Below, piece after piece: positions 362 to 36,326 of a DNA stretch of 57,984 nucleotides. The first letter of the stretch is position 1; every line of letters starts with the position of its first letter. The stretch comes from Clostridia bacterium (lineage in GTDB: Bacteria; Bacillota; Clostridia; Christensenellales; UBA1242). The DNA lies in NCBI GenBank assembly GCA_017467895.1, contig JAFUKB010000012.1, forward strand, positions 1-57,984. The letters run 5' to 3'. Under the pieces are notes generated by a model. It was not told the origin of the DNA, did not search any database, and saw only the letters and a program-made list of their open reading frames with translations. The position numbers and the translations under genes were made by a program.

Positions 362-3300
362 CTAGTTTCCGCTTGGTTTTTTAGGCACTTTTGGTTTTTG
401 TTCCACACTTAAGGGCGCCTCTATTATTGGCTTTTGTTTTGGAGTTTGAGGTTTTGGTGGTTGTTCCACTTTTGCCTCTGGTTTTGTTTTTGGCTTTGGC
501 AATGGCTTTGCAGAACTTTGCGCTTTTGGCTTTGGAGCAACTTTTTTTGCCTCAGTTTGCGTTGGCGCTTGTTTCTTTTCTGCCTCTGGTTTTGCCTTTG
601 GTTTTTTAATTGGTTGTTTAACCTCTGCTTGTTCTGCTTGTTTTACTTCAACCTTTGGTTGTTTCTTTGGTTGAGGTTTTGGTTTTTGGGCAGGCTTAAT
701 TTCTTCAACCTCTTGTTTTAATGTTTGTTTTGCTGGGTTTTTAGGGGTTGCTGATTTTGGCTTTGCCTTTGTTGCAGTTTGACGCTTTTTAGGTTTAGGC
801 GGTGCCTTTTCCACAGGCGTCACAAGCGCAGAGTTGTTTGCCTGATTAGTTGTTGCTTCCGACAATTCTTGCTTTGTTAAAGGTTTAACATTTGTCAACT
901 CGTCAGGTTTTGCTTTTAATGTTTCTTGTGCTTTTTCGTCTGATTGCGTTGATGATTGTTGCTTTGGCTGTTCGTTTAAAGTCTGCTCTTTTAAATTTGT
1001 TGCAGAATCAAAAGGCAACTGTTCATCTTGAACTTGTGTTTCTGGTAAGTTTGTCAATGCATCCGGGTCGGTTTTAACCGCCTCTTTTAATGCAATTCTG
1101 TTAGATAGCCTTTTAATTTTGTTTTGTCGTTTAAACACAACAAGCCAAATAACCACACCCACAGCAATTATGAATATTATGCTACCAGCAATCAAAAGAA
1201 TGATTGGAAGTTTTGAAATGCTAAAAATTAACTCAGCATCGGCAGTTACATAACCAAACACTCCAAAGAGTTTTTCTTGCCATGAAAGCACTTCATAAGT
1301 TACATCTGGGTCAAGCATTACTCCCTTAATTTGGTGGTCATTTAAAATGAACACGCCATTAAATGGATTTTCTAGCGTTCCTATTGGAATCCAGAATTTT
1401 TCGGTAAGGTCTAGGTCTTTCATTAGTTTATAATAGATTTTTCTCTCATATTGATTAATTATTCCATTATTAACCAAGTTAGCCATATATGCCAAATGCT
1501 CGGCACTTTCAATTAAGTATGGGTTTTCTTCAGTTCCCTCGCCGGCAAACTCTGCTGGACTATTAAACCAATAAATTTTTTGGAACATAAATTCAACAGT
1601 GTTATCGCCGTCTTCAATAAAGAATGTATTTGTTGAAACTGTTAACACAAAGTTATCTAAGTCATAACTTGTTTGGTCTTTAACCAAAGTGCCATTAACT
1701 TTTACTCCAACAAGTTGATATCTAACATTTGCTGTTGGTTTTACTCGCAAGTTCATAAAGAAGTTATAAGCCCCCATAGCATTTGTTAAATCTTGCTCGT
1801 TAACTGTTATTGTGCCCGCATCTTCAAGTGAAGTTACAAACGAGATATAAATCGACTTAGTTGCAAGCACTGCCCCAACATTTATTGTTCCCGCCTCAAC
1901 ATCTTCAACGGTTACCTCGTAGTAATAATATAATCCATCGTCGCTTAATGTAAACATGTTTGGCGCGTTATCTAGCATAAGTGCAACAATCAAGAAGCCC
2001 GGAGTTAAATCGCTTAGCGTTACAATAAGTTTTTCGCCTATTGCAAGTGTTGTGTTTTCTACATTAATTTTTACATTAGGATTTTGTTCAACAACAACAT
2101 TAACCGTTTTAGAAGCAAACACTGCTGTGTAATGAGTGTCGCCCGTTGCAACAACAGTTGCAGTTTCTGGCAAGGTGTAATCAATTACTCCGTTTACCTT
2201 CCAATATGCAAATTTATAGCCTCTTCCTGCGATTGCAACAAGTTCAACCGCCTCGCCCGAAACAGAATCAACATATGTAGAACTGCCGTTTACTGTTGCA
2301 CCGTTAACGCCAACCACAGGTTCTTCTACGCTAACCGAAATCCTAAACGCATAATAAAGTACAATAGTTACTTCATTTTTTGGCATTGTGAATATACTTG
2401 TACTATGCAAAATATCTGTGCCCGAGTCTTTTATTTGCCAGCCATAATAGTTATAGCCATCAAACTTAGGAGCAACGACTTTAACTCTTGTGCCAACAAC
2501 AAACTCAACATAGTCGCAAACTCGTGGGTCGGTGTCAGAGTAATGAGGATACATTCCACTGTTGCCACCAAACAAGTTTTTGGCGTCTTGAGTGTAAGTT
2601 ATGTTAAATGGTTTAAACTCAACATTAACAATATATTTATCAAAAGCCCATGTGCCATAAAGGTAAGCATCAATAGCGCCATCAGTAATTTGGTTGTTAA
2701 GGTCATATTCAAATCCATAAACTTTTTGGTCATCAATTATTCGATAAATTTTGCCAGTAGAATCAATAAAGTAAGTATATTTGCCCATGCCAAAAGCGTT
2801 TGTGTTCCAGCCAACAAACAAGCATGCTTCACTTGCCGTGCTTTGTGGGTCAATTAGTCCCACAGGCAGGGTTGCCACTTCGCCACTTTTTGTAGTAAAG
2901 GTGCTTTCGCCATGATTGATATAATAAGTATATGTTCCTGTTATTGTGCCCTGCTTGTCTAAATAATTAAAGTCAAACACAACTCTATATCTAGCCGATG
3001 TAAACGCCAACATAACTTCTACATTAGACATTACATTAATCATGCTTGCCATGCCAGAATCTTCAAAGTTGAATTCTCGCTTGTTTTCAGGCTGTGTGGT
3101 TTCGTCATATCTATAAGTTGCTCCACCAAACATAAATCCGTTTGCAAAGTTAAATTTTATTGCAAGAGAGCCACCATATTCAACAATAAACGATACAAAT
3201 TTATTATCAACAATGTCAACCTCTCCGCCAACATAGCCAAGGCTGTCTGCCAAAATAACCGTCATGTCGCTTATTGCCGAAAGTTGTTCAGTTTTTAATG

Positions 3301-6300
3301 TAATTGTAAATTGTTTAACCTGCAAATTAATTGTTATATCAACAAACAATTCATCTTGGTTTTCATAAATTTGTGTTAATGACTCAATTAAAATTGTATT
3401 TTCATTTAATGTCGCCCCACCAACACTCTTAACAACAAACCATTCAGGAAGTGCAATTTGTGTTTCAAATGCGTCATAATCATGCAAATTAGAGACAACA
3501 AAACTAATAACTTGCTCGCCTGTTGTTGTGTCAGAAATTGGAGTTGATGCGGTAATTCCATCAGCAAATGTAAACAATGTTGCAAGTGCCTCATCTTCAA
3601 TAAACAAGTTGTTGCGCTTTGTGTTGGTGTTCATTATTACATTAACAGTAATTTGTTTTCCTAAGAATCTTGCCTCATAGGTTGCATCATATGCCACACT
3701 CAACGGTTTAAATTCAGCCAAGGTTGAAACAAGTTGGTCTCCATAATACCAGCCAACAAACTCTGCATATTCATAGCCAACTGCGGTTGCACCAAGTGCA
3801 TCGCGACCATAATATACAACTTCTTCAAACGATGTAAACAACTCATTTTTAAAGTCTTTTACCTCGCCAAGTGAGCCTGCAGTGTATTTAATTGTGTATT
3901 GTTGTCTTTGAACTACAAGGCGCAAGGTTATTGCCGAATAAACAGCAAACTCAATGTCTTGCCCTTTTAGTTTTTCGGTTTCTGTTACATAGCCATCATC
4001 GGTTTTTGCTTGCCACAACATATACATAAAGCCTGTTGTAACATGGTCAACCTTTAATGTCATTTGAGTCATATATTCATAAGCATAAGTACCAAAATCT
4101 AACTCAACTCCATTTATTACAAGTTGTGCCATTGGAGAATTGCCTGCTTCAATTTCGCCTGTTATTTCGTTATATTCGCCATATTCAACTGTTATGTTAA
4201 ACAAAGAAATATTAATGTCAAACACCAAGGTTCCGCTTGAAGTAAAGTTTTCAAACACATAAGAATATGTGTCGCCGTCTTGACTTAATGTAAGTTTGCC
4301 AGCATTGATTGAAGGCTCTGCAGGAACAAACGAAAGTGTATTAAACTCATAACCATAATCAACAACAAATGCAAATTCTACTTTGGTATCAACAAGCACA
4401 GTTGTTGCAAAGTCGCTTGTGTAAACCGCCCCACCATATGTTAAGGCAAGATTTACAAATTCAAACACAATTTCAACTTCTATTGGTTCAAAGTCTAATG
4501 TAATGCTTAAATCACAAGAAAGGTTTTCAACTGTAAATTCAATTCCGCCTTCAATTTCTTTTTGAGTTATTACAAAAGTCTCGTTATTGGCTTTTGCCGA
4601 GTAATCAACAAACCTATAACCCTCGTTTGCATATGCAACAAACACGAATGTTTGGTCGGTTTTCTCAACAAATTGAATGCTTGCGCCACTTAACGCCTCT
4701 TTTTCATACTCAGCATAACCATAGCGCTCGTCATTTACATTAATGATAATGGTATTATCATTTGCCGTAATGTTGGCTGTTAAACTTGTGTCGCCAGTAA
4801 AGCCGTTAAATGTTGCAACATTTTGTTCTGCACTACCACTTGCAAGTGGGTCAAACACAAAGCCTGCAAGTGTGTAACCAACTTTTGCTATAACCACAAC
4901 CTCAACTTTAAGTGAGGTAGAAACCTCAAACACAAGTTCGCCATTTTCGCCCACCGTTGCAAGAATTGCACCGCGATATTCATCGCCAAGGAAAGCGTTT
5001 GCTTCAACAAGGTCAGCATGCTCAGCATAAACGGTTAAGTAATATATGTTATCAATGTAAGTTGCAACCAATTCAATGTCTTCTAGCATTGTCCAAGTTG
5101 CTCCTTCTTCAAACTCAAAAGCAATGTCGTTTAATGCATAACCATTAAATGTATAATAATCTTTGCTAGGAGTTAAAAGTGCTGGAACAAGTGTGTCATA
5201 GGTAACCTTAATAGTTACTTTATCTTGATTTTCATCAACATATGACCAACCACCACCAAGTTCAAATGTTCCGCCGTTTGCATTGAGCGTTAAGTTAAAT
5301 GTTAACGCTTCAAACACTGCATCAAATGTTGCGTCGCCAGCAACGGCATAGTTAACAAAGTAATCGCTAGCAAAAACATTGCTTCCGTCACTATAACCCT
5401 TAAATGCATAACCAACTTTGTTAAGCGTAATAAGGTTTTCAAAATTTGCATCTAATTCGCCAAGTTTTTGACCATAATATGCAGTTATGACAGCAATTTG
5501 ATAATTACTTAAATATGTAAACAGGTTTTCGTTCCTGCTTGCAAAAGCAACTTCAGAAGCAAATGTTACTGTGTATTTGTTAAGGTCATAAACCAATATT
5601 AATGAAACATCATTATCAATTATTTGCGTTGTTTGGCTTGAAAGTTCGTCCACGGAGTTAATTCCAAAGCCAAGATAAGTGTAATTTTCTAATTCTGTAA
5701 TATATGTTTGCAAATCAAACTCAGTGCCATAAGGCGCTGTTGTTTCAACTGCTGTAAAGTTAACGTCTGCAATATATGTTTGAGTTGCTAGGTCATAAAC
5801 ATACCTATCTACCCTTACATTATATATATGAATTTCCCAAATAGCATAAAGGGTAACTTCTTCGGCATAGGTAATTACTTCGTTTAATGGTTTTTCAAAA
5901 TCAATGGCTATGGTAGCACCATCTACAGTTGCCCAACCACTAAATGTGTAACCATCATATTTATGCCCTGCCGTTGGAATGTCGGTTGCTATTTCGTAAT
6001 AATCATAGGCTTTTGCAATAAGTCCTCCAACAATATCTGCCTCTTTTGGACCATTAGTAGAAACATATTCAAAGTTAAGTGTTATAAATTTAGCCAAAAT
6101 GCTTCCAAATAGGTCTAAGCAATTATAGTTGTTTATATCTTGCCCAGAAAGGGTGACAACAAGAGGAATTTGGTCGCCCTTTAATGCGCTTGAATATTCC
6201 ACGCTTGCAACAGCCACACCGTCGCCCGCCATAACGCCAAACACTTCAAATGTTTCGCCGTTTGGGCAAAGCACATTAGTTGTGCCGTCTTGTTGCTTGC

Positions 6301-18300: not shown

Positions 18301-21300
18301 CAATTACAATTTTTAAAGCATAGTTTCCACAATCTTTTGCACCTGCAAATGCCGAACCGTCAGCCCTAAGCACTGTAAGCGTTGCTTTGTGCAAAGGATA
18401 ACCCTCATCGCCGGAAGCAAGCCCAAATGACAACCAATATTCGGTGGTTTCTGCGTTTGGCAATGTAATATCAGATGTTAAAATTGTTTGTCTTTGACCG
18501 TTATAAACTTTTTCAAGAGAAACTTTAACCTCACTGTCTTTTAAATGACGCTTGGTTATCTCAATATAACCAGTGATTTCAAAGTCAAAATTTTTGTTTG
18601 TATCAACATAATTTCCGTCCGTGTCCATTACTGCAACAATAATGTCAAGATTTGCACTTGTATATTTTTTAATTTCACTGCTGTTTGTAATAATATATAA
18701 AACTGTAAACTTAAATGCAGTTTCTGCAAATGCAAAAGTCTTTATTTCTGTACCATTTGCAGAGGTATAGTTTGGCCTGTAAGTTTTGCCTGCTCCACTG
18801 TTGTCAACAACAGTTGTTACTTGCGCGGTAATCTTTTCGCCGGTGTATTCCTTTGGTACATTGCCAATGGTTAAACCAACTTGGCGTTTTTGTATTGTGC
18901 CAGCCGTGTTAGAAGCAACAACGGAATAGTTTTTCATAATTTCGTCGCCAGCCTCAACGCTTATAATGTTTGCACCAACTTGAGAAGATGAATAGGTTAT
19001 AATAACTTCTCTCCCTGTTAAGTCATCATGAACTTGTGATGCAGTATAATCGCTTGCAGTTAGTGTATATGTGTAAGTGTCATATGCGTCATATGCTTTG
19101 TTAATAGCATTTTTTAAAACTAGCGTTTTTGGAGTAATTGCCACATCAAACACTTGATAAGGTGCGTTTGAGTTGCTTGCATGATATAAAATTGATGTGT
19201 ATGCCTTAGAACCATCTAAAAGCACATATTCGACATATGCCGACACAGTTAAAGCAAAGCCATATTTGCCATTGTCTACAACATTGCGAATTAACAACTT
19301 GTTTTCGTTTAACAATGCTTCGTCAACAACAGCCCAAGACACATTACCCGCCTTAAGCCAAGCAACTGTTACTGCAACCGCTTCTGGCACAGCGGTAAAG
19401 TTTGGAGTTACTTCGGTTGTAACACCATTATATGTGCGTGAAATATTGCTTCCTGAATTGCTTGCACCTGCTGAGTATGACCACTGAGCATATAACACTA
19501 TCTTTGGCTCTTTAATGCCCCAAATGTCAGCAACAATGCTGGTTTTGTTGTTAATTTGAGTTCCCCAACCAACAAAGGTAAAGCCTGTGCGATTAAGTGT
19601 GCCAAATGTATCTTTTACACTATGGCCATAAATAATGCTTTCAACTCTGCGAGCAACACCGTCAATGGTTTCGCCAACCGCCAATGAATAGTCTAATGTA
19701 ACCTCACAAGTTTTGGTAAACATTATTTCAACGGCATAATGGTTTTCGCCCGTCATGGTAAATGTAATTTCATATGTGGTTGCGTTGGCTGAGTATGTTG
19801 CATAAGCAATAAAATCGCCATCAGTACTGCTAACTTTAATTTCTTTTATCCAATAATTTTTTAAATCATATGTTCCAGTTTTGTTAATCTCTAAACTAAA
19901 TGTAACCTCTTTTCCACCAACGCAGTTGTTGCGAATTACACTTAATTTGTTATTTACAAAACGGCTTTGATAATAATCATCAGATTCTGCATTGTTTAAG
20001 TCAATGGTTAACCAGTTGGTTAAATCGTCGTCTTTTTGTGCGGTAAAAATAAATTCTTTTTGATTTTCGCCAAGTTCTCTAATTTCAAACACACCAACAA
20101 TGTTAAGTTTAAAGTTTGTGCTTGCTTTTGCAATAGATGCCCCGTCATAAGTTGCTGTTAAATTGCTTGTAACAATTACATAATCACGATTAGTTGCTGA
20201 ATACGAAGCAATTACGCCACTGTTTGTGCTAATTGCAAACGATAAGAACAAGTGGTCTTTTAAAAGTTCCCATGCTTTTGCGTTGTTAGAACCAGCCGAG
20301 CCAAAGTAAATGTTGTTAACATATGGGCTGGTTACATAAGCACCCATTTTGTCTTTGGTTAGCGCCAAGCCACCATTTTTGTTGACTTGTATTTTTGCAA
20401 TTTCAACTGGCGGTTCGCTTTCGTCGTAAATATGCACCGAATATGAGCCGTCTTTTATGTAAGCGATTATTTCAAATGGGTTAATTACGCCGGTTGCGAC
20501 TTCTGGGTCTAAATAACTTGCGCCCATTGCAGATGGATATTCTCCAACCCTTGTATAAACTATTGCAATTTCATTAGACGCATCACTTGAAACATATGAA
20601 GCAATAACTCCAAAATTGAATGTGCTTGCATCAATTTCAAATATACCTGCAACAGTTTGATTTACAACTTTTGTGCCATCATAAACTTTTTCTATATTGG
20701 CAATAGTTAATTGTTTTGGAGTAATGGTTATGTTAGATTTTGCTAGTTCTGTGTCGCCATCTGAGTAGTTGTTGATGTAGTTTTTTGAAGCAAGGCCGGT
20801 ATCGGTTAAGTCGGTAAGTTTGTAGGTATAAGTAACCTTTAAACTAGCACTATCTGGGACATATTTAAACATGCCCGAAACAATCCAAACATTGCCCTCT
20901 CTAACAATGGTATATCTGCTTGCGTCAAAATCAACATAACTTGTGCCGTTTGAGCCAAGCATTTGAACTTTTATGTCGTTTGTCATGCTGTCGATATGAT
21001 TAAACTTTGCAAGTTCAAAAGTTTGTGTTTCGGCGTTATATTCGCGAGTTATGTTTTGCTCGGCTGTTGGAGAAATAAGTGCGTCAATAACTTTCCAATA
21101 AGGATACATTTCAAGTTTTGGCACTTCTTCAAACGAAGTTGTTGTTATGTTAACCGTGGTTGTTTTGCCATGATTAACCGTTGTGCCATTGCCTGTTACA
21201 TAGATGTAATAAGCCTTGCCTTTGTATGTTGCTTTCCAATAATCAAAAGTGTAGCCTATGCGATGAAGGTCTGGCACTTTAACATAATCTGTTGTGCCAA

Positions 21301-24300
21301 ATTTAACCGTGGTTGTAGTGTTTTTGTTTGTGCCCGTAAGCCATGTGCTTATGGTTTTAAACTCAACACTAATAATTGGGTAACATGCCGTTAATGTAAT
21401 GGTGTATTCAAGTTTTCCGCTATCGTAGTCATATTCGTCGCTAGTAAACTTAGCGTATGTTCTAGAAAGTCCGACAGTACTATCGTAATAGGTTTTTGTT
21501 AAACTTGAACTTATTTTTCGTTTTGCAGTTAAAAGTTGATAACCTTTGTCGTCAAATTCATCAATTAAATCTTCAATATAAGAATATAAATCAACCTCTT
21601 GCCCAAATATGATAGAAGCATCAGAGTATTCCCACTTGGTTGCAGTTGAACCAGAGCCATAGACAAACACAAATGTTACAGGCTTGCCCTCATAATTTAC
21701 ATAAAGGGTAAATTCTTCTGGCTCAGCACTTCCTCCTTGTGCCATGGCATAAATAAAGTCCTTAATTTTTACATATGCAGTGCCGTTAACAGTTCTGTCT
21801 GCACTTGGGGCTTCGGTGCTAAAGCAGCCACGCTCGTTTATTCCAGGAGCATAAAAACCCGGTGCATCTAAAACCGTAGTATCGGCGGTGCACAAAATTA
21901 AATTAACCAAATTGTTTTTGTCTAAGTAATTTGTTGTGACGGTAACACTAGTAAATCCACCAGCCTCGGTGTAAACAACTTCGCTTCCGTCGAGATATTT
22001 TGATTTTTGAGTTACATTTTCGGCACTCTTAAATGTTATGTTAAAGTCAAGCGCGTCATAAACCGCATGAATAATAACCGTATCGCCATTTGTGTAAGGA
22101 TAATCTGCACTTATTGAAAGCGTAGATTCCACCCCGTTTGCAATGAGGTTAAATTGATAAATAACATACTCAACACTTGCGTTGGTTATGGTGTCCAAAC
22201 TAACAAAAGTGCCGTTTGAAATATTTTTAATTTCAAAATGCGAGAATTTAAAGAATCTATAAAGATCGCTATTTGCCTCTAGTTTTACAGCACTAGCCAA
22301 AAGCGAGCCACTGCCTGTTGAAAGATATTTGCGTTCTAACACATAATCTTCAGCATTTGCCTTGTTTGCGGCAATATATGCCGAGTCAACAGTTTCGGTT
22401 TGCACAAACCCAACAATGTTCACATTGTAAATTATTTCGGTGAACTCAATGCTTGCCTGTTTGTGCCCATCAATAATTGCGGCAGAAGTTATTTCGGTTG
22501 GACTTGCCATAATTGATATTATGCCAATATAAGAGTTTTCGGTAAGTCTATAATTGCTGTGAAGAGCGTCAAATATAACTGTTTGAGTTGCGTCAGTTAA
22601 CGAGTTTACAACAACCAACTCAACCTGTGTTTGAGTTTTGTTTCTAATATAAAATTTGTCTAAATAAGTAAACTTAATTTCTGCAACCGTAGTCTTGTCA
22701 GCAAATGTATGCTCGGCATCGGTCACATAACCGTTTGTAACAGTTGCTGTTGTTGTGTATTCTTGCTCGGTTACATAAATCTCAAAATATACTCCTGCAG
22801 GATAATAGTTGTATGTTACAGGAGTAACGGTAATTTTAGTAACATCTTCACTGGTTAGGCTTGTTTTGTTTGCAATGTTCTGAATGTTAAACACTGCGCT
22901 TAAACCACCGCCAAAACCACTTAGTGCCACTGCCGTGCCGTTTGTGATTGAAGCAAGCGCAAGTTCACTTACACATTTACGCTTGGCTGTGTTTACTGTT
23001 CCATTGTCATTTAAGTCATATGTATAAGCAACTACTTTTGCAAAGTTTAAGAATTTTGCTTCAATTTGTGCGGAATATGCAATTTTGTAATGTTGATTTT
23101 TTGAATAAGAATCAAACTCTTCCTCAGTGCTTTCTTTAATGTCAATAACTTGAGGACTAATAAATGTGTTTTGCTCGTTGTCTAAGTCAAAAAAGTCAAA
23201 TATATACTCGTTTTCTTGCGCAACAAACTTGATAATTAGCGTAAGAGTTGCATTTGTTCCGCCAATATACATAACCTCAAACTGTGCTTGAGAGTTATAA
23301 TTTTGTGCCGTTGTTTGAGTAACCGTGTTAACTTGAGAGTCGTTATCACATTCGCAAATTAAACTAATTTCAAAAATCTTGGTCGCCCCAGAAGATTTTG
23401 TCCATTTTAAAGAATTTAGCGAGCCAACAGGAATTTGAGTGTCTTCAACAACAAATGCTCCAACTTCTGAGTTGAAAGCACGGTTATATGAGTTGTTAAA
23501 AATATACTCAGTTTCATATGCTCCAAGCAGGTTATAAAGATATTCATAAAGGGTTGCCATTTGCAACTTTTCTTTTACCTTGCTTGTGGAATCTAGAAGA
23601 GTGTCGCCGTCATAAATTTTTAAATTTACTGTGCTTATTATTTTTTTATGCTCAGTTATTTCATATTCAACATGGTTTGCAAGAGCACAAACTTGCAAAA
23701 CCGAATAGTAATTATAACTTGTTAAACTTCCGCCAGCATAAACAGGAACCGGCGCGTAGCAAAGATGGTCGCCGTCAACATAATATCTTGCATTTTTAGA
23801 ATCACCATCATAAAACATGTCTCGAGCATAAAAGATTAAGTTTGCTGGAGCAGTGACATTTGCATTGTTAGATTGTGTTACAGTTATTTCTCCATCACCA
23901 TCTCCCAATGCTTTTAGGTAATATGAAGTGGGCTCGGAATTTGTTGCAAGCGAGTTGGCATCATAAACCCTTAAGACTTCGGTGTAATACATTTCCGCAA
24001 TCTGATTGCCCGAAAAACCAACTGCAGTGTCAATATCTCTATATTTTGACTCAATAACAAATTTTAAATTTGCTTTTTGGGTGCTGTTTTTAATTTGATA
24101 TGTAACCGCTTTAACACCCCACCAACAATAAAGCGTGGTTGGCGTTGCGACGGAAGTGCTTTGAAGTGTTGCAAGCAAATTTGTTGCAAAAGCAGTATAA
24201 TTAACCGCCGAACCATTTGCATGCTTTGCCTTTAAAACATTAATCTTGTTAGAAGCACTGCCTGTGTATGGAATGGTTGATGTGTTTTGTGCAAAATATA

Positions 24301-26323
24301 CTTCAACCATGTGTGTATTTTCATAAGCGCGGTTGTTTAAAATTATCTGATTTTTGTAGTAATCCCTTAAAGTAAGCCTATATGCATACGCTCCGCTTAT
24401 GTCTTTTACCTGAAAATATTGTTGAGTTACTTCAGATTTTACATATTCTAAACCCGCATTTTTTAAAGTGTATTGTTGAATGTTAAAAACAAACAAATCA
24501 ACATCATTAGCAACAACATTGTTACCTTCTGTTTCACCCGTAAGCACAACTTTGCCATTTGCTCCTGCAGTAACAAAAGTTCCGTCAGTTTTAGAGCCCG
24601 AAGCGGTAATTGTTCCACCGCCACCTTTAACTGCTAAGTGCCTAACCTGATACGTTGCTCCACCACCAATAGAAATTTTTACTGGTGAGTTATATCTATA
24701 CATTGGCTCAGTGTCGCCATCGTTGTCGCTGTCGGCAAGAACATAGTTGTCATTTTTGTTGTCTTTGTCTTCGTCTTCAAACACTGCTTCATAAACAATA
24801 TATGGTTTGCCACTGCCCGAAGTAAAATAGCCGCTGTAACCCGACGCTTTAGAGTCGGTAAACACAATTCTGTCTTTCCATTCTTCGCTAACATCTTCAA
24901 ATGCTTTGGTTTCAAGCGTGCTATCTATTTTTGTTGCGTCATAAACAGTGTTATCCAAATTAACCGACGCATTAGTAATTGATGTTGTTCTAAAATATGC
25001 ATTATCGGTTATTTTAATTGACTCATCAAGCAAACTTGTTTTAAGAGCATTTATGCTGATAGTTGGAACATAATATTTGTAGTTTACATCTATGATGATT
25101 CTAACCCTATGTTGCCTTGTTGCGTCAACATAAACCTGAAGTTTGCTATTTTCATGATTATCTGTTTTTGTGTCAAAAACATAGCCATTGCCATCATCAA
25201 CTGTGTCGGTTGTTGGATATTTTCTAAACTTGGTGGTGTCATTTCCCGTTTGAGTGATTTGAAGTTTGGAGTACATGCACAACTGGTCTTCTTTGTCAAT
25301 ATCAACCTTTACCTGCTCCACCCATTCATCTTTAAAACCAGTAAGTGAGGCGTTTTCATAACCATAGTTCCATTGCTCAACTTTAAATCCCGTAACCGTG
25401 CCATAGTTTTTTAAGTCGGTGTCCAAAAGAGAGGTTAAAGCAATTAGCCCAGCCTCGCCAGAAATTGCCCTTTGGTCTTTATTGTATGTTTTTATAATTG
25501 GAGTAACACTGTCTATTGAATCGCTAGAAGAACTGCCCGTGCCCCTGAATTTTTTCGTTCTTTCGTCATACAAATAAATTTCATAACGGAATTCATTCGT
25601 GCCCTTAGATGACGATGCTGTCGAACCCGTGCAGTTTGACGCCGAACCAACTTTCCCATAACTGCCGGCACAACCCCACAGTTTGGCAGTTCCGCCGGAA
25701 ACCAAATCATAAACAGTTTTGCCAGACAACCCCACAACTGTAGGTTTTTCAACAATAAGGTCACAAATGGTTCCAGTGCAGTAGCCAAACAAGCCATAAT
25801 AACCAACAGTTATTGTGTTATCAAACATTATGTTGCTAACCTTATGACCATTGCCAAAAAACTTACCCTTGAATGGGTTTGTTGTCTTAGTTCCAATGGG
25901 CGTCCAAATTCTGCCAGACAAGTCTATGTCAGCCATTAAATAAACATCAGCAGAAGCATATGGTGCCGTTCCTGCATTTACATGTTTGGCGAACTCAGCG
26001 AGGTCTTTTGCAGAGTTTATTAATATACCTTGAGAATTATTGTTATTACCCGTGCCCTTGCTTGACGACAGCAAAAACGAAGCCCCTGAGGACTCGAGTT
26101 CTTGCTCTATGTAATCTTCCCAATGCTCCAGCGTGCCACTTTCAAAATCAGCAGAAGAATCCCCCGCGTCGGAGTTGGAGTTTTCGACCTGCTCGGCATA
26201 AATGGTTTGAGCGTTATATGCTAAATTTTTAACCGCACCACCACCAAAAACACAAAGCAAAGTTGCAAAAACTAAGCAAAGTGGTGCAAAAAATTTAATA
26301 AATTTGCTTACAAAAGGCTTCAT
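362..26323 (-). CDS. giant membrane-anchored surface protein (8,653 aa): signal peptide, cap module, beta-rich N-terminal region, dozens of YDG/MBG-like repeats, Listeria-Bacteroides (Flg_new) repeat block, second cap module, TM helix, K/P-rich tail
   Basis: Single uninterrupted frame. The start is moved from the track's 26365 to the ATG at 26323, which follows GGGGGA and opens a classic signal peptide (MKPFVSKFIKFFAPLCLVFATLLCVFGGGAV). The upstream 'MWYN...' codons overlap the -10 box. Recurrent K.YDGT / K.YDAT motifs and GY.F.GW...LYA.W motifs are visible in the translation. Stop is TAG at 362-364. Confidence 0.9.
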   Translation of the reverse strand: MKPFVSKFIKFFAPLCLVFATLLCVFGGGAVKNLAYNAQTIYAEQVENSNSDAGDSSADFESGTLEHWEDYIEQELESSGASFLLSSSKGTGNNNNSQGILINSAKDLAEFAKHVNAGTAPYASADVYLMADIDLSGRIWTPIGTKTTNPFKGKFFGNGHKVSNIMFDNTITVGYYGLFGYCTGTICDLIVEKPTVVGLSGKTVYDLVSGGTAKLWGCAGSYGKVGSASNCTGSTASSSKGTNEFRYEIYLYDERTKKFRGTGSSSSDSIDSVTPIIKTYNKDQRAISGEAGLIALTSLLDTDLKNYGTVTGFKVEQWNYGYENASLTGFKDEWVEQVKVDIDKEDQLCMYSKLQITQTGNDTTKFRKYPTTDTVDDGNGYVFDTKTDNHENSKLQVYVDATRQHRVRIIIDVNYKYYVPTISINALKTSLLDESIKITDNAYFRTTSITNASVNLDNTVYDATKIDSTLETKAFEDVSEEWKDRIVFTDSKASGYSGYFTSGSGKPYIVYEAVFEDEDKDNKNDNYVLADSDNDGDTEPMYRYNSPVKISIGGGATYQVRHLAVKGGGGTITASGSKTDGTFVTAGANGKVVLTGETEGNNVVANDVDLFVFNIQQYTLKNAGLEYVKSEVTQQYFQVKDISGAYAYRLTLRDYYKNQIILNNRAYENTHMVEVYFAQNTSTIPYTGSASNKINVLKAKHANGSAVNYTAFATNLLATLQSTSVATPTTLYCWWGVKAVTYQIKNSTQKANLKFVIESKYRDIDTAVGFSGNQIAEMYYTEVLRVYDANSLATNSEPTSYYLKALGDGDGEITVTQSNNANVTAPANLIFYARDMFYDGDSKNARYYVDGDHLCYAPVPVYAGGSLTSYNYYSVLQVCALANHVEYEITEHKKIISTVNLKIYDGDTLLDSTSKVKEKLQMATLYEYLYNLLGAYETEYIFNNSYNRAFNSEVGAFVVEDTQIPVGSLNSLKWTKSSGATKIFEISLICECDNDSQVNTVTQTTAQNYNSQAQFEVMYIGGTNATLTLIIKFVAQENEYIFDFFDLDNEQNTFISPQVIDIKESTEEEFDSYSKNQHYKIAYSAQIEAKFLNFAKVVAYTYDLNDNGTVNTAKRKCVSELALASITNGTAVALSGFGGGLSAVFNIQNIANKTSLTSEDVTKITVTPVTYNYYPAGVYFEIYVTEQEYTTTATVTNGYVTDAEHTFADKTTVAEIKFTYLDKFYIRNKTQTQVELVVVNSLTDATQTVIFDALHSNYRLTENSYIGIISIMASPTEITSAAIIDGHKQASIEFTEIIYNVNIVGFVQTETVDSAYIAANKANAEDYVLERKYLSTGSGSLLASAVKLEANSDLYRFFKFSHFEIKNISNGTFVSLDTITNASVEYVIYQFNLIANGVESTLSISADYPYTNGDTVIIHAVYDALDFNITFKSAENVTQKSKYLDGSEVVYTEAGGFTSVTVTTNYLDKNNLVNLILCTADTTVLDAPGFYAPGINERGCFSTEAPSADRTVNGTAYVKIKDFIYAMAQGGSAEPEEFTLYVNYEGKPVTFVFVYGSGSTATKWEYSDASIIFGQEVDLYSYIEDLIDEFDDKGYQLLTAKRKISSSLTKTYYDSTVGLSRTYAKFTSDEYDYDSGKLEYTITLTACYPIISVEFKTISTWLTGTNKNTTTTVKFGTTDYVKVPDLHRIGYTFDYWKATYKGKAYYIYVTGNGTTVNHGKTTTVNITTTSFEEVPKLEMYPYWKVIDALISPTAEQNITREYNAETQTFELAKFNHIDSMTNDIKVQMLGSNGTSYVDFDASRYTIVREGNVWIVSGMFKYVPDSASLKVTYTYKLTDLTDTGLASKNYINNYSDGDTELAKSNITITPKQLTIANIEKVYDGTKVVNQTVAGIFEIDASTFNFGVIASYVSSDASNEIAIVYTRVGEYPSAMGASYLDPEVATGVINPFEIIAYIKDGSYSVHIYDESEPPVEIAKIQVNKNGGLALTKDKMGAYVTSPYVNNIYFGSAGSNNAKAWELLKDHLFLSFAISTNSGVIASYSATNRDYVIVTSNLTATYDGASIAKASTNFKLNIVGVFEIRELGENQKEFIFTAQKDDDLTNWLTIDLNNAESDDYYQSRFVNNKLSVIRNNCVGGKEVTFSLEINKTGTYDLKNYWIKEIKVSSTDGDFIAYATYSANATTYEITFTMTGENHYAVEIMFTKTCEVTLDYSLAVGETIDGVARRVESIIYGHSVKDTFGTLNRTGFTFVGWGTQINNKTSIVADIWGIKEPKIVLYAQWSYSAGASNSGSNISRTYNGVTTEVTPNFTAVPEAVAVTVAWLKAGNVSWAVVDEALLNENKLLIRNVVDNGKYGFALTVSAYVEYVLLDGSKAYTSILYHASNSNAPYQVFDVAITPKTLVLKNAINKAYDAYDTYTYTLTASDYTASQVHDDLTGREVIITYSSSQVGANIISVEAGDEIMKNYSVVASNTAGTIQKRQVGLTIGNVPKEYTGEKITAQVTTVVDNSGAGKTYRPNYTSANGTEIKTFAFAETAFKFTVLYIITNSSEIKKYTSANLDIIVAVMDTDGNYVDTNKNFDFEITGYIEITKRHLKDSEVKVSLEKVYNGQRQTILTSDITLPNAETTEYWLSFGLASGDEGYPLHKATLTVLRADGSAFAGAKDCGNYALKIVIESDLYFTYERLVTFKIKSLYVKIEQQGTFSREYNGTTQALLVVDEHYIIKSYTGSDGKAVEIADQTVIKTEIANNFAFKFSDKNVNTNIPISFSKLDNAYNNITIMYTGGSFVGNITQATVVINIGTATRFYDRAGYVVNYDQLTLENTSGDVIGVGTLKNAFGDSLNGGNVLIAYKQNLNVGTHDVSTFELTNFNISTITFDSGDILTRNYKVVGYKGTLKLLSANIRVALLSENGYVGEGIGYTYTGQNVALRYVVSVITNDGEKTYETSAQALTYVSFGFAKADGTGISEAKNVGNYFAKFTLVDSTNYTLEQGDDSLPFKIVKKALTINVYAERAWKKDTVLTYNLKTEDLEGLCIGHYLGNSATISTNGTDIGKYYINDTNTTNHSEIVIYASGNTSENLRNNYEITYSGYLEIIPVQVVNIYVTEEFIYNGEVQNLAITLDLNSGDTVVYEYSQSADDAAALWITANAGTNQEYVNNILTGASEIIRLYSVTFDSDGDENYSRDEGGLAFKYAGTYRAYIYSKNFDMASLLVTIEQKEIDVKNIYNFKANKQYDATTNVLVDNKFGDINRAKNNANGYGGIYGDDVYGTAGANTDYEYIYLTGTYSGLFGESLSITFAINKKVYNVETPQAVIAERTFNSYKLKNSNITGNISEREVVFKYVGADDKYYIGDGITLSLTNNFKVVDKGSEVFGIAEAFDGQITFKSIVNAGSYNLSEQLLLNIDFGLLEVSSNLMYYSIEFSGTLKVNKAVVIVGLIQNNIYTYDATAHMAEFTAVIFDGKGAVTAGDEKAIIIAKYQKDAGKAYDAVEAGEYTIYPEISATFAHNYAYATEGDSLATKLIINKRNLSIIVDKSIYYGKLLGRTCYEYVLSNSDAVVATAETGLVEGHSIANISIAKTTDSAIGVYKYSQGKVVVDTFAIVAGAYNVTDNYNVSYDITLTISETLGKDEFYIEAQSLEYNGYNRTEDVVFNVILGETATDVVAILGANFFADVDLVYALSEIKNAGTYYARVYITINSSPKQAYPFVVAVEITKKVVSGYTVNGVQFNGDKVYDATSEIELDSNVLCTPDITNDASGVKPITALVATYYASGLPVSAVSNDSYDVVISIKTSAGYEYLANNYDFVALKGKITPRQVVYTLKTTEQTQFVYDGKHTIMLGVSNLQLASGYTLADGHDLTSYYFEFVIENVGEYLLKNVTPKTPATIKDSSNFDVTSNYEITVDPNAKYVVNAREIVVSWNAGDLVYNSFDRKADIENALTYTATATNYANAESILNGNNIKAEFIAQIKDSLTLYNDSEVKNVGTYALVATASAGSNFEFKVASTHYSVRIIPATLNIDFTGAEILYEEYLINSGFILAYTWENTNGDVLNIVSGVSAETFANDPAFFSGFKFAVTKNNPPYANEVYVYSQTASESEISVTYNKANANYVVNSIVGSLVLVAEDYDFDVEKLTYTGVDLFGSLVITYVNIGATTPTQVPLSDIIAQEIINVGVYELAVKVGNAYYPAFAEVEKRKILISDLDIVTIRQYDATVNVYNSLGGTTLAEFVDGVCVTATFADAFLIDENNRITFAINDPSYLGTGFNKVDNYILLSDIVGTIEKRKVEINLGAISFMYDKGGEYDYVHTDTSADWLADGDTLYNNVVNITFEVAEVCSNALISGLNWSLSYAVHHDALAVTNCYEIVVDGTLTVNPIEIGIVYNKFENDQTMFNNLGQEITFAPVKAGNTTEETFNRHLTEITNSLVITYSGRLTPQKLVGTYTALVTCNSANFKIVGQASYDYEIIPYEYTLNLDHVTSNNFEVDEDTGVVDKTKLFFSKLALEPDPEFKVSLSIELNGEIDFVITLAREVNLPQSEYVNYYDLYYEGVCDNANINVTIPEQYLKRAFRIIALSNEGINVRIDNSSVIYNGLEHTLSADDFRVYNVIDINTNEYEEVEFNLKLTYTQTGEDFVGETNAGTYKLTYLVTTHFWEPVTEEFDFVISPLGVTIYADDALISKVYDGTKAITFDYSLLETESNQTLATILDDEIRAIVPEFEFAGQDVGEWIISITNASNFANFVLELEDDLYGQITARDTYLQVNGNKYYDGLDITTPATITNAVLGEALSGEITIYAKTAGLYKDNAGDGEFDFADYAYDANLGVNNVLYNYNILGIIGQYQINKAIINVASFVDSYQYTGKEVELVYSLTITDKAGTPVLTAEPLSFVRVDNAYAVNANADGEFYTARFTLKDAVNYTFESDVSAVEKRFVITRVDLVINIGEQTKEYDVSEFVYTLAGDEIASGALCDGQTLTGTITSVSKNVGSYNVASNNLNGGTDVIIVYSIAKGTTETSANYNVAFEGALVITVAEAEIIFGEYVYNSTIQKLNAIVKVGGVEDKEFVLEITAFNGESGSDISFMYAGVYSVKVSSVYNNFVAVTHSVEMAKKEVTQINYTANKPYDGTLTVVGEITSADVFANDISNEALKKVKFVGTYAKVFGQSQITFELVPLGGADETLAQLVIDSYNITYVGYGEITQRLVTFAYNQEKNPDGLYYTGANHELLVGWFDISGGLVGENFAGSVAWTNAIINAGSYNLAEISKDNSIFENNLIVSGSQVDYYSFAFTGTVVINRAVVKVANVENYEVTYDGAGHTVTLTAEIVDGKGVIVDGEEKNILTAKYVDSNANTLLEAVDAGKYSILVMSANGNYEYNNSAFENNILTILKRDYKIIIDKSFPYDREYSFIGYFNYMLSTADVPEETDPTTHSLVGEFRTLGYQLGTYSYLTGAEDNSILIYNLSIAGEKVYDRGVIIADSKALNNYNITVDATILIREHLEAGEVIVIQYGTLTYNGENQLSAVQVEIRTGIGNNEYTSQVVDLSDSDIFIGMYAYADISLDQIDEVKNQGRYYGYIHLADRAEYRFVTIFVEKRVILDYYVQGTTDLFDGNKVYDGLKTYIIDSQYVCACDIGVITLTANYTSANVGATLKEITISGDVYGNYELTQLSGTITLREIVVDLKQPIIYTYAGAQNKQITATDFVVVGEYGLIDGHMLAGFITVAVSNVGEYSIFGLEGLYVLNGGERVDSNNCVVTIAETAVVTVEKLLVELSWTGASTDYNSADQRGNIALLAIPVAPPEQKEEILTALQVGVGEILAFALNGESVEEVINAGTYVISINNASLEANNFTFSVNASANFVTIKKVALTIAFEGSQIEFNTYHANGGYVITETSAYGIFESDKQYLQQLKVTVIGDANIDTKYTYNADSALSQLAITSSANLETNYNITITGDLTLTADHSLFEITNPIYEGATVDLFNKIAISYNGESLTLAKFDARAITFVNPSENYYVKAFLTDGVFAKVAVAVLPKTITTIVYDANKTYDGTTVVYSGAQTNLTSDEFADGDDVYALGNYASIYVGVTGINFALAGTHADNYVLNVAYTTGEILAKNVTVELTNNARFVYFATETYVYVYDGTLDLAEGDVVIASSKQLVFATAGVGLNIDIADITSNTFEIQNANRIDVTHCYTFAYVGKIDIFARQFAVSLKPSDNLVYNTEEKPVSLSIVEVDDLTDAEIEQLRDLVEIVYIDSTNTQTSFAPTEAGSYLAKAMFEEGNYVLVATADNATELEFVIEQFEFTITADNAPYFVINEDNLNEALRQDYMVEVKEDTSVYALVTFERTEDPSSADYSRIGLHDLCFKGECDNANIKVICSDEVLKSALFIQASATKVLVITLNNYAKGTFERTFGLKDIGLFNISDFEYTCQVGDRTLIASELAILNLQGTVLFNSGDVNASGYSMNSFDLTSVYVNIKVETTLKLAIAQRTAEVTLAEGETYDKTFDGTVAFNKQYTFAPVLTNAELADGFTLEDIEIFSEIGISYESANAGVQHLVNDAGKNYIIAYKDNANATGEIFKLDAIITLPESVVYGTYASTEETLDITAVATLVGGSGESLDGFKQYLTVSIVGLSADKLSLGGYLNVGEYAISYKSDNLNIVAAPSMLEIVKKDITVALVDASGYNVAISKQQDGTTNVLCPNGETFEVFGVMAGDGVAVASVEYSSALKGDQIPLVVTLSGQDINNYNCLDLFGSILAKFITLNFEYVSTNGPKEADIVGGLIAKAYDYYEIATDIPTAGHKYDGYTFSGWATVDGATIAIDFEKPLNEVITYAEEVTLYAIWEIHIYNVRVDRYVYDLATQTYIADVNFTAVETTAPYGTEFDLQTYITELENYTYLGFGINSVDELSSQTTQIIDNDVSLILVYDLNKYTVTFASEVAFASRNENLFTYLSNYQIAVITAYYGQKLGELDANFENLITLNKVGYAFKGYSDGSNVFASDYFVNYAVAGDATFDAVFEALTFNLTLNANGGTFELGGGWSYVDENQDKVTIKVTYDTLVPALLTPSKDYYTFNGYALNDIAFEFEEGATWTMLEDIELVATYIDNIYYLTVYAEHADLVEANAFLGDEYRGAILATVGENGELVFEVSTSLKVEVVVIAKVGYTLAGFVFDPLASGSAEQNVATFNGFTGDTSLTANITANDNTIIINVNDERYGYAEYEKEALSGASIQFVEKTDQTFVFVAYANEGYRFVDYSAKANNETFVITQKEIEGGIEFTVENLSCDLSITLDFEPIEVEIVFEFVNLALTYGGAVYTSDFATTVLVDTKVEFAFVVDYGYEFNTLSFVPAEPSINAGKLTLSQDGDTYSYVFENFTSSGTLVFDINISLFNITVEYGEYNEITGEIEAGNSPMAQLVINGVELDFGTYAYEYMTQMTLKVDHVTTGFMYMLWQAKTDDGYVTETEKLKGQDIEFAVYSAITLRLVVQRQQYTIKYTAGSLGEVKDFKNELFTSFEEVVYYGRDALGATAVGYEYAEFVGWYYGDQLVSTLAEFKPLSVAYDATYEARFLGKQITVNVIMNTNTKRNNLFIEDEALATLFTFADGITASTPISDTTTGEQVISFVVSNLHDYDAFETQIALPEWFVVKSVGGATLNENTILIESLTQIYENQDELFVDITINLQVKQFTITLKTEQLSAISDMTVILADSLGYVGGEVDIVDNKFVSFIVEYGGSLAIKFNFANGFMFGGATYRYDETTQPENKREFNFEDSGMASMINVMSNVEVMLAFTSARYRVVFDFNYLDKQGTITGTYTYYINHGESTFTTKSGEVATLPVGLIDPQSTASEACLFVGWNTNAFGMGKYTYFIDSTGKIYRIIDDQKVYGFEYDLNNQITDGAIDAYLYGTWAFDKYIVNVEFKPFNITYTQDAKNLFGGNSGMYPHYSDTDPRVCDYVEFVVGTRVKVVAPKFDGYNYYGWQIKDSGTDILHSTSIFTMPKNEVTIVLYYAFRISVSVEEPVVGVNGATVNGSSTYVDSVSGEAVELVAIAGRGYKFAYWKVNGVIDYTLPETATVVATGDTHYTAVFASKTVNVVVEQNPNVKINVENTTLAIGEKLIVTLSDLTPGFLIVALMLDNAPNMFTLSDDGLYYYYEVTVEDVEAGTINVGAVLATKSIYISFVTSLEDAGTITVNEQDLTNAMGAYNFFMNLRVKPTANVRYQLVGVKVNGTLVKDQTSYDLDNFVLTVSTNTFFIEDGDNTVEFMFQKIYWFNSPAEFAGEGTEENPYLIESAEHLAYMANLVNNGIINQYERKIYYKLMKDLDLTEKFWIPIGTLENPFNGVFILNDHQIKGVMLDPDVTYEVLSWQEKLFGVFGYVTADAELIFSISKLPIILLIAGSIIFIIAVGVVIWLVVFKRQNKIKRLSNRIALKEAVKTDPDALTNLPETQVQDEQLPFDSATNLKEQTLNEQPKQQSSTQSDEKAQETLKAKPDELTNVKPLTKQELSEATTNQANNSALVTPVEKAPPKPKKRQTATKAKPKSATPKNPAKQTLKQEVEEIKPAQKPKPQPKKQPKVEVKQAEQAEVKQPIKKPKAKPEAEKKQAPTQTEAKKVAPKPKAQSSAKPLPKPKTKPEAKVEQPPKPQTPKQKPIIEAPLSVEQKPKVPKKPSGN
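365..1132 (-). other. C-terminal 256-aa low-complexity Lys/Pro/Ala/Glu/Gln-rich tail of the giant protein (predicted cytoplasmic)
   Basis: Translation KRQNKIKRLS...KPKPQPKKQPKVEVKQAEQAEVKQPIKKPKAKPEAEKK...KPKVPKKPSGN immediately follows the TM helix. The + strand here is a G/T-rich quasi-periodic tract. Confidence 0.8.
1133..1210 (-). other. single C-terminal transmembrane helix of the giant protein
   Basis: 26 hydrophobic residues LPIILLIAGSIIFIIAVGVVIWLVVF followed by KRQNKIKR (positive-inside). There is no LPXTG before it. Confidence 0.8.
1320..1530 (-). other. membrane-proximal 'cap' module of the giant protein (copy 2)
   Basis: NPYLIESAEHLAYMANLVNNGIINQYERKIYYKLMKDLDLTEKFWIPIGTLENPFNGVFILNDHQIKGV. 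It shares the pattern of the N-terminal copy at 25830-26040. Confidence 0.6.
2100..6100 (-). repeat. block of Listeria-Bacteroides-type (Flg_new-like) repeats inside the giant ORF (approximate bounds)
   Basis: Repeated G(Y/F).F.GW......(L)YA.W-type motifs, e.g. HKYDGYTFSGWATVDG...VTLYAIW, KVGYAFKGYSDG, YYTFNGYALND, YAEFVGWYYGD, GYNYYGWQIKD, GYKFAYWKVNG. Confidence 0.6.
6100..20730 (-). repeat. array of ~80-100-aa YDG/MBG-like beta repeats inside the giant ORF (approximate bounds)
   Basis: Dozens of occurrences of (K/R).YD(G/A)T..., ...NAG.Y... and ...NY.(I/V)...G.L.I motifs, e.g. ITPKQLTIANIEKVYDGTKVV at about 20641-20730. Repeats are diverged at the DNA level. Confidence 0.6.
25830..26040 (-). 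other. N-terminal 'cap' module of the giant protein (copy 1)
   Basis: GILINSAKDLAEFAKHVNAGTAPYASADVYLMADIDLSGRIWTPIGTKTTNPFKGKFFGNGHKVSNI. Confidence 0.6.
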
Positions 26324-26337
26324 AAATCCCCCAAGGC

Positions 26338-26358
26338 ATAATATCTTGCAGATATTAT
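26338..26358. promoter_or_regulatory. perfect 9-3-9 palindrome (candidate operator) overlapping the -10 box and start-site region of the giant gene
   Basis: ataatatct tgc agatattat. The left arm (26338-26346) is the exact reverse complement of the right arm (26350-26358). Confidence 0.6.
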
Positions 26359-36016: not shown

Positions 36017-36022
36017 AACCAA

Positions 36023-36310: not shown

Positions 36311-36326
36311 TTTAAAAGGAGTTTTC

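Follow-up and report, generated by a model that had tools for sequence, protein, structure and literature searches.

A single gene at positions 362..26323 of contig JAFUKB010000012.1 (assembly GCA_017467895.1, a Clostridia bacterium; the whole stretch of 57,984 nucleotides is referred to below as the window) encodes a protein of 8,653 aa, and measures 25,962 nt including its TAG stop codon at 362-364. The gene and all of its parts described here lie on the minus strand. The gene is real, intact and under purifying selection, and its product is probably one giant type-I membrane protein, a membrane-tethered surface fibre of the fibrillar-adhesin-like kind with a probable adhesive or contact role. 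Fibrillar-adhesin-like proteins combine an N-terminal distal region, a stalk of tandem beta-domains and a C-terminal anchor; about half of them have no known anchor, and transmembrane (TM) helices are present in 20% of those (Monzon et al. 2021, PMC8286594). Bacterial proteins of at least 5,000 aa are uncommon but well documented, the two main classes being surface proteins and the non-ribosomal peptide and polyketide synthetases (PMC11573180), and giants of more than 30,000 aa exist (bioRxiv 10.1101/2023.11.21.568195).

Integrity of the gene and selection

Other contigs with the same locus were fetched through the neighbouring gene for a 381-aa protein, and the comparison across samples covers the first 9,631 nt of the giant gene (3,210 codons, or the first 37%). 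Of two more ENA samples from the same series, one has an identical segment and the other differs from it by one base. The unrelated Logan run SRR27608106 contains an allele with 97 differing sites in the first 9.6 kb and zero stop codons. According to the Nei-Gojobori method applied to the 3,210 codons, these comprise 74.5 synonymous and 22.5 non-synonymous differences, corresponding to a synonymous rate (dS) of 0.036, a non-synonymous rate (dN) of 0.003 and a dN/dS ratio of 0.083. Along these 3,210 residues the selection is equally strong throughout, and no hypervariable tip stands out. For the part of the gene beyond the first 37%, support is provided by the full product lengths called in other assemblies: the gene is intact in two independent assemblies (L004 and L006, representing at least two other samples), with called lengths of 8,653 and 8,656 aa.

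Considering that the source is a short-read metagenome assembly and that the exact protein sequence is itself absent from the protein collection searched, an assembly artefact made of mis-joined repeats, or a decaying pseudogene with a chance-open frame, had to be weighed. Self-comparison of the protein by BLASTP, phmmer and ungapped dot-plot reveals no near-identical repeats, the strongest internal similarity being at ~30-40% identity. With protein identities of only ~20-40%, the internal repeats cannot collapse, and mis-joining is not realistic; together with the near-identity of the two samples of the same series, the stop-free allele diverged by 1% in the third and the low dN/dS, this makes an artefact exceedingly improbable, and for the first 37% of the gene the cross-sample comparison effectively excludes it. 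A preliminary description of the window, made from its sequence, reported a single uninterrupted frame of 8,653 aa with a Shine-Dalgarno-preceded ATG and a TAG at 362-364, which was confirmed in the sequence, and named repeat collapse, stops and frameshifts as the hazards, none of which was borne out where the independent assemblies were compared.

Predicted membrane topology and anchoring

A hydropathy scan of the whole protein detects only two hydrophobic segments, at aa 8-30 and aa 8371-8397. The first forms the core of a signal peptide region (26189..26323; aa 1-~45) that starts with a Lys-rich n-region, continues after the core with GGGAVKNLAYNAQ and contains no lipobox; by this signal peptide, the protein is predicted to be exported, as expected of a fibrillar-adhesin-like protein. 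The second is a single TM helix (1133..1213) with the sequence LPIILLIAGSIIFIIAVGVVIWLVVF, then KRQNKIKRLSNR, and a hydropathy maximum of 3.2; the residues that come after the helix read KRQNKIKR. Given one N-terminal signal, whether cleaved or not, and one C-terminal helix followed by positive charges, the positive-inside rule would put the tail inside the cell and the large domain outside.

The remaining 256 aa (365..1132; aa 8398-8653) make up a low-complexity tail rich in Lys, Pro, Gln, Ala and Glu (K52, P37, Q28, A26, E24), with short internal repeats at offsets of 36-57 aa and a net charge of +26, the last 146 aa alone amounting to +27. The ectodomain, by contrast, is strongly acidic (D+E 1054 vs K+R 548; net about -500). 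The tail is predicted to be cytoplasmic and disordered, and binding of anionic lipids or nucleic acids, or positioning of the protein, are guesses at its role. The only database match of the tail, together with the TM helix, is a weak one to AuxB, the lipoteichoic-acid stability factor of S. aureus (NCBIfam, 23.8 bits vs a cut-off of 300; E 1.9e-5), and was rejected as probably compositional; judged from the aligned region of the model, AuxB itself also appears to have a long charged region after a TM helix.

No LPXTG-type signal is found near the C-terminus, the only similar sequence being LPETA at aa 8051, 320 aa ahead of the TM helix and 600 aa from the end, and Pfam yields no match to SLH, LysM, choline-binding, autotransporter or Gram_pos_anchor families in the giant protein. 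The combination of a signal peptide and a C-terminal TM helix without LPXTG is also found in both neighbouring surface proteins (931 and 381 aa, described below) and in many relatives that share the terminal cap modules of the giant protein (among them P0009, P0013 and P0027). In these proteins, a short basic tail follows the helix. Because neighbours and relatives share it, TM anchoring looks like a local habit and not an anomaly.

Membrane-proximal repeats and the stalk array

Next to the membrane-proximal cap lies a block of Flg_new and Flg_new_2 repeats (1574..5983; aa ~6781-8250), also known as Listeria-Bacteroides repeats and similar to the B-repeat of InlB, with ~12 units as counted by motif. 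In Pfam searches with aa 6701-8400, Flg_new_2 reaches 52.7 bits against a cut-off of 23.6, its best stretch being aa 8006-8072, and Flg_new reaches 34.7 bits against 27. Each of the two families exceeds its cut-off in two stretches, to which ~4 of the ~12 motif-defined units contribute, and the remaining units are recognized only through G[YF]xFxGW-type motifs. Because the neighbouring 931-aa protein has canonical repeats of the same type (172.7 bits), this divergence is a property of the giant gene and not of the taxon.

The largest part of the protein is the stalk array (5984..20743; aa ~1861-6780, ~4,900 aa), which is composed of divergent MBG-like and YDG-like units of ~95 aa. Within aa 1879-6663, 31 such units were individually recognized, and ~50 are implied by the spacing. 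The units are likely grouped in pentads of ~480-535 aa; the hhalign self-comparison gives a sub-period of ~535 aa, and the pentad was recognized by eye. At a higher level, one super-repeat copy (12524..17776; aa ~2850-4600) aligns end to end, at 30% identity, with a second one (7124..11926; aa ~4800-6400), and the array has evidently been built by ancient nested duplications. Single-sequence and pentad-level iterations of hidden Markov models (HMMs) did not link the units to each other, and definition of the units by simple regular expressions or by overlapping two-unit windows was dropped, as segmentation failed and the windows were misaligned. Two alignments of units were used, one of 22 units anchored on the recurrent [NA][AV]GxY motif (A3) and another of 10 K.YDGT units (A5). 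The conserved pattern of A3 is Y.Y.G ... N.G.Y ... NY ... I.K..L.I.

When the units were scanned singly against Pfam, YDG was matched by 6 of the 10 units of A5 (best score 24.8 bits vs a cut-off of 25), and YDG, MBG, MBG_2 or MBG_3 by 7 of the 22 units of A3, every unrelated family being matched by at most one unit; the best MBG_2 score is 18.5 bits vs a cut-off of 25. A Pfam scan of the array as one 4,990-aa piece gives no MBG or YDG match. Among PDB sequences, the best match of the A3 profile is 4ng0_A, the repeat of CmbA/LAR_0958 of L. reuteri (E 0.0025), over the full length of the domain. An AlphaFold2 (AF2) prediction for one unit, based on the alignment of paralogues, produced an all-beta model with a predicted local distance difference test score (pLDDT) of 73 and a predicted template modelling score (pTM) of 0.61. 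The profile of YDG units retrieved only spurious matches from the PDB, and sequence searches of the PDB with both halves of the giant protein returned 0 matches. A protein search with aa 2900-4050 and with a two-paralogue array profile (A1; E<=10) found nothing, in a procedure that needs shared 5-mers and scales E values to 5.8 billion sequences and so does not exclude distant domain relatives. Taken together, the array units are likely to be very divergent stalk domains of the MBG/YDG type.

Terminal caps and the orphan N-terminal region

Both ends of the ectodomain carry a related module. The N-terminal cap (25589..26041; aa ~95-245) resembles the beginning of a beta-helix of the GLUG/Peptidase_M26_N type, with a single GLFG rung motif and a few further rungs. 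The C-terminal cap (1220..1561; aa ~8255-8368) is a second, more truncated start of the same type and stops right at the TM helix; the two caps are 35-39% identical. When aa 1-1200 were searched against 5.8 billion protein clusters, 146 matches came up, each covering 5-14% of the query and corresponding to the N-terminal cap module. In these homologues, the module recurs every 300-400 aa ahead of GLUG-type rungs, and the proteins end with LPXTG, dockerin, SLH or a C-terminal TM helix. A profile of both caps and 23 homologous segments (A4) matches the PDB entry 3n6z_A ('putative IgA1 protease') with E 2.4e-12 and the region of the N-terminal domain of the S. pneumoniae IgA1 protease with E 0.002. 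Identity between the caps and cap segments of proteins annotated with Glug or M26_N is 28-37%, and the homologues carry the Pfam domains Glug and Peptidase_M26_N. The N-terminal cap scanned alone has no Pfam match, and the two caps alone stay below the Pfam Glug threshold. The caps are best described as the truncated start, the first ~100-150 aa, of the common GLUG/IgA1-protease N-terminal beta-helix domain.

Between the N-terminal cap and the array is an orphan region (20744..25588; aa ~246-1860) that is non-repetitive, acidic and rich in Asn, Thr, Ser and Tyr. It has no Pfam or NCBIfam match even at lax thresholds and no PDB sequence match, and self-comparison detects no internal repeats in it; one Flg_new-like motif, GYTFDYW, is present at aa 1690. 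In a HMMER search with aa 201-1400 against 1.84 billion representatives, one real match was found, a 595-aa fragment from another sample (P0139) that is 61% identical to the orphan region in the search and 63% identical in the pairwise alignment (A2). The fragment is encoded on a contig of 2.3 kb (L087, positions 1-2282; ENA ERZ28018841 k141_1502371), where it borders on a truncated Gfo/Idh/MocA gene and a stop codon lies just ahead of it. This contig has probably been assembled as a chimera, and because of this the fragment says nothing on the length of the orthologue. The orphan region thus appears essentially lineage-restricted, yet conserved where a second species is visible, and is presumed to be the membrane-distal 'head' of the protein.

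Scans of genome contigs with aa 1-1200 showed that the giant gene is carried by no GTDB species representative, and scans of metagenome contigs with the A1 profile and the A2 alignment gave no matches. Similarly, the ileS loci of related metagenome-assembled genomes (MAGs; best isoleucyl-tRNA synthetase identity 74%) contain no syntenic orthologue of the giant gene.

Comparison with known systems

The layout proposed in the preliminary description has largely been upheld, while several of its interpretations needed revision. The long Asn/Thr/Tyr-rich stretch without a nameable motif was found again as the ~1,600 aa devoid of Pfam, NCBIfam and PDB matches, and no close, functionally described full-length homologue emerged from the protein, genome-contig and metagenome-contig searches, as had been supposed. 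Its Flg_new-like block is supported at the level of Pfam cut-offs in two stretches for each of the two families and by motif elsewhere, and its ~4,900-aa YDG/MBG-like array is supported as a layout but only in part as a family label, given recurrent Pfam matches at or below cut-off and one modest PDB match. A cap module is indeed present at each end, but as the start of a common domain that recurs in surface proteins of Clostridia rather than as a special bookend device. Likewise, the missing wall-anchoring signal, the one TM helix and the 256-aa Lys/Pro-rich tail are all there, but the lack of an anchoring signal is not unusual when neighbours and relatives are considered. What had to be abandoned is the view that no described class accommodates the architecture, since it fits the fibrillar-adhesin-like definition (PMC8286594).

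Like the fibrillar-adhesin-like proteins of Firmicutes, the giant protein is apparently secreted, has a very long stalk of small beta-domains and a non-repetitive N-terminus far from the C-terminal anchor, and resembles them in fast divergence and lineage specificity; many of those proteins also lack a known anchor domain, and some of these have TM helices. A tandem stalk is present, and surface anchorage would be provided by the C-terminal TM helix, which is not among the listed classical anchors. The differences are that no recognized adhesive domain, which usually sits at the end away from the anchor, is present, that a length of ~8,650 aa lies near the very top of their range of sizes, that the stalk domains are too divergent for Pfam cut-offs and that a basic tail of 256 aa extends past the TM helix. 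Unlike sortase-anchored (LPXTG) adhesins, the giant protein has no LPXTG-type motif within ~50 aa of the C-terminus.

Among solved structures, the best sequence match to the array units is the repeat of CmbA/LAR_0958 of Limosilactobacillus reuteri (4ng0), with which they share the YDG ... aGxY ... NY ... I motifs. CmbA is an experimentally studied mucus adhesin (PMC5339304) of a gut commensal, with a stalk of ~80-100-aa tandem repeats. It is far smaller than the giant protein and anchored to the wall by LPXTG and sortase, and its repeats are described as a near-identical intragenic macrosatellite (PMC13339910), whereas the units of the giant protein are ~20% identical to each other. Similarity to internalin B-repeat/Flg_new surface proteins is confined to the membrane-proximal ~1,470 aa, where Flg_new_2 and Flg_new exceed their cut-offs; the repeats are far more divergent than the five repeats of the neighbouring 931-aa protein, and there is no leucine-rich repeat or GW module.

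With the GLUG/M26_N domain of the S. pneumoniae IgA1 protease (6xja/7jgj) and of 3n6z, both caps share the signature NPY.I...L..LA..VN.G, DIDL, W.PIG, F.G.F.GNGH.I and GLFG, that is, the N-terminal helix plus the first rungs of the domain. In contrast to these proteins, the giant protein has only the first ~100-150 aa, once per end, with the C-terminal copy abutting the TM helix, and unlike the M26 IgA1 proteases it has neither HExxH in its 8,653 aa nor a match to Peptidase_M26_C. The giants of Omnitrophota ('Archaeovorins' and the dockerin-type proteins; bioRxiv 10.1101/2023.11.21.568195) are also encoded by giant metagenome-derived genes and have divergent domains largely invisible to HMM libraries, and the dockerin-type ones have a long extracellular N-terminal part with C-terminal TM and intracellular regions. 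They belong to another phylum and exceed 30k aa vs 8.7k aa here, and the Archaeovorins are marked by numerous TM regions and a divergent SecA-DEAD domain; the giant protein has one TM anchor and no SecA-DEAD, dockerin or peptidase domains.

The domain families and the overall design are therefore already known, and no defining fibrillar-adhesin-like feature is contradicted, although no adhesive domain has been recognized. The unusual features are the 256-aa polybasic tail after the TM helix, the truncated cap placed directly at the membrane and the orphan N-terminal region; size, extreme sequence divergence, hierarchical ancient duplications and the presence of truncated caps at both ends are further distinctive. 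Approximately 95% of the residues have no above-threshold Pfam match. Standard annotation is largely blind here, and alignments of the protein's own paralogous repeat units still recover domain families.

Proposed function and alternative explanations

In the proposed model, the N-terminal signal peptide would route the chain via Sec, the single C-terminal helix would halt transfer and fix the protein in the cytoplasmic membrane, and the basic Lys/Pro-rich tail would remain cytoplasmic. Outward from the membrane, the truncated GLUG-type cap, ~12 Flg_new-type domains and ~50 divergent MBG/YDG-type beta domains would make up a long acidic stalk. Crossing the wall, this stalk might reach outward by roughly 0.2-0.3 micrometres, as estimated at ~4 nm per domain. 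The distal end, which would contact the ligand, would be the orphan N-terminal ~1,800 aa, composed of the GLUG-type cap and ~1,600 aa of folds without known counterparts.

This model is favoured by the location of the two hydrophobic segments at the two ends only, with positive charges after the second; by the above-cut-off matches to Flg_new_2 and Flg_new, the recurrent YDG/MBG matches, 4ng0 as the best PDB match and the all-beta model of a unit; and by the wide distribution of the cap family in secreted proteins of Clostridia that end with LPXTG, dockerin, SLH or a C-terminal TM helix. Several results weigh against it. None of the domains identified is adhesive or ligand-binding, the N-terminal 1,600 aa being without Pfam, NCBIfam or PDB match, and the MBG/YDG scores (PF17883, PF18676, PF18887, PF18657) are below or at the Pfam cut-offs. 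In an hhalign comparison with the 4ng0 sequence, the probability is no higher than 37% and the match covers the C-terminal half of the domain, and Foldseek finds no significant match of the unit model in the PDB, 4ng0 included (best E 0.27), so that, with the E value of 0.0025, the relationship with CmbA is statistically weak. AF2 applied to 901 aa with a two-row alignment gave a pLDDT of 27, an unusable result, and a rod-like geometry is thus not supported by a model. Finally, adhesin function does not account for the 256-aa tail.

The absence of an adhesive domain, together with the extremely acidic ectodomain (net about -500), the uniformly strong selection, without a hypervariable tip, in the first 3,210 residues and the presence of other TM-anchored surface proteins next to the gene, would suit a structural component of the envelope, in which a dense brush of acidic membrane-tethered fibres without a ligand-binding head serves as a spacer, a protective coat, a cell-cell cohesion matrix or a substitute for a glycocalyx or S-layer. 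We consider this unlikely, because arrays of MBG, YDG and Flg_new are typically adhesin stalks, as in CmbA (PMC5339304), and because the conservation at 63% of a non-repetitive 1,600-aa N-terminal region in a second species suggests a specific function rather than filler. The orphan region might instead contain an enzyme, a protease, glycosidase or lyase, which would make the protein a cell-tethered extracellular enzyme on a long stalk: homologues of the caps occur in Peptidase_M26 proteins, in one heparinase II/III protein and in dockerin proteins, the cap profile matches structures of IgA1 proteases, and a neighbouring gene encodes a GDSL esterase that is mounted on Flg_new repeats and anchored in the same way. 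With no HExxH anywhere in the protein, no catalytic family in Pfam or NCBIfam even at lax E values and no PDB sequence match for either half, this explanation is very improbable.

Comparably small is the chance that the protein is a polyprotein precursor, cleaved after export into shed or wall-associated pieces, so that the 8,653-aa species would never be the functional unit. Giant surface proteins are sometimes processed, a possibility that has been raised for the giants of Omnitrophota (bioRxiv 10.1101/2023.11.21.568195), and the two caps could mark separate modules; against this, the giant protein shows neither a protease domain nor a known cleavage motif, and the continuous array with its nested duplications looks like a single stalk. 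A surface fibre of known design remains the preferred reading. It is also rather unlikely that two novelties hold jointly, namely that the orphan region consists of undescribed folds forming a new binding or catalytic head and that the truncated cap, TM helix and polybasic tail form a new anchoring or coupling device. If so, the device would connect a fibre of sub-micrometre length not with the wall but with something inside the cell, such as the nucleoid, a cytoskeletal element or anionic lipids of the membrane. A transmembrane tether of this sort is not known among the adhesins of Gram-positive bacteria. A long polybasic cytoplasmic tail on a surface fibre would in any case be a small but testable oddity.

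Among the heritable gut taxa associated with health are the Christensenellales and related uncultured Clostridia. To our knowledge, how these bacteria attach to surfaces is essentially unknown. Because 26 kb are maintained under strong purifying selection for one surface protein, the giant gene is a prime candidate for a role in contact with mucus, plant particles or partner cells.

Translation start and transcription signals

The open reading frame on the minus strand is free of internal stops over 362..26365, and its first ATG would give a product of 8,667 aa. This ATG, at 26365, falls within an extended -10 element, ATGTGGTATAAT (26354-26365), and is for this reason an unlikely start. The ATG at 26321-26323 is preceded, at a distance of 3 nt, by the Shine-Dalgarno-like GGGGGA (26327..26332), read from the sequence, and is the start also chosen by gene callers on the independent ENA and Logan assemblies (8,653 and 8,656 aa). 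The motif, the position of the upstream ATG within the -10 and the agreement of the independent gene calls together favour the ATG at 26323.

The promoter-like extended -10 (TGnTATAAT; TGGTATAAT) was read from the sequence at 26354-26362, in the promoter-like part spanning 26338..26362, and we infer that it functions as a promoter; a generic consensus promoter scan called no -35/-10 pair at the start of the giant gene. Overlapping the -10 is a perfect 9-3-9 palindrome, ATAATATCT-GCA-AGATATTAT (26338-26358), identified by an inverted-repeat scan and in the sequence, which could be an operator or a hairpin of the 5' untranslated region. Downstream of the gene, 62 nt past the stop codon, a hairpin with a T-run resembles an intrinsic terminator (262..300), and the upstream neighbour (26693-27838) is divergently oriented. 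Because of the promoter-like -10, the terminator-like hairpin and the divergent neighbour, a monocistronic unit is plausible; the preliminary description had stated it as a fact, and the elements it cited were indeed read directly. An Rfam scan gives no match near the giant gene.

Upstream of the giant gene, ~30 nt from its -10, lies a 16-nt GC tract of alternating purines and pyrimidines, CACGCGCACGCGCGCG (minus strand, 26390-26405). It is set in the otherwise very AT-rich intergenic region of 369 nt that separates the giant gene from the gene for the 381-aa protein, and this region is 100% identical in the strain diverged by 1% (L006).

Host and genomic neighbourhood

The flanking genes are housekeeping ones, encoding HelD, asd, ileS, ldh and tRNA-Arg. 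The isoleucyl-tRNA synthetase (IleRS) is at most 74% identical to those of GTDB species representatives, and its best matches are from MAGs labelled as uncultured Clostridia or as Christensenella/Christensenellales, from rabbit, rumen and gut samples. The host is probably an uncultured gut or rumen bacterium of the Clostridia, belonging to Christensenellales.

The upstream neighbour (26693-27838, plus strand) encodes a protein of 381 aa with a signal peptide and a C-terminal TM helix and without any Pfam or NCBIfam match. It is kept with the locus in all other assemblies, and its product may be functionally linked to the giant gene. A second surface protein of 931 aa is encoded at 33066-35861 (minus strand) and comprises an N-terminal GDSL esterase/lipase domain, the five canonical Flg_new repeats mentioned above and, at the C-terminus, a TM helix and a short basic tail. 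This protein is a predicted cell-tethered esterase whose style of anchoring is that of the giant protein. It also has a weak NCBIfam match, over a short stretch only, to a model of a Treponema neuraminidase.

In two MAGs of Clostridia whose IleRS is 71-72% identical (L029, 2-8830, and L034, 3-8873), different proteins of more than 2,900 aa are encoded directly upstream of ileS. These have abundant GLUG-type beta-helix rungs and cap-like starts, and show no homology to the giant protein by BLAST. Genes for large surface proteins seem to recur near ileS in this lineage. The IleRS gene of the window (36327-39416, plus strand) yields high scores, yet far below the cut-offs, with the models of the mupirocin-resistant (type 2) enzymes MupA and MupB, and the 465-nt gap upstream of it (35862-36326) contains no T-box or other leader detectable with Rfam at gathering thresholds. 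Farther along the contig, at 45744-48884, a cluster encodes a putative amidase (Amidase_6), a RimK-like ATP-grasp ligase and a protein of the amino-acid kinase family, and may constitute a module for the modification of a peptide or poly-amino acid.

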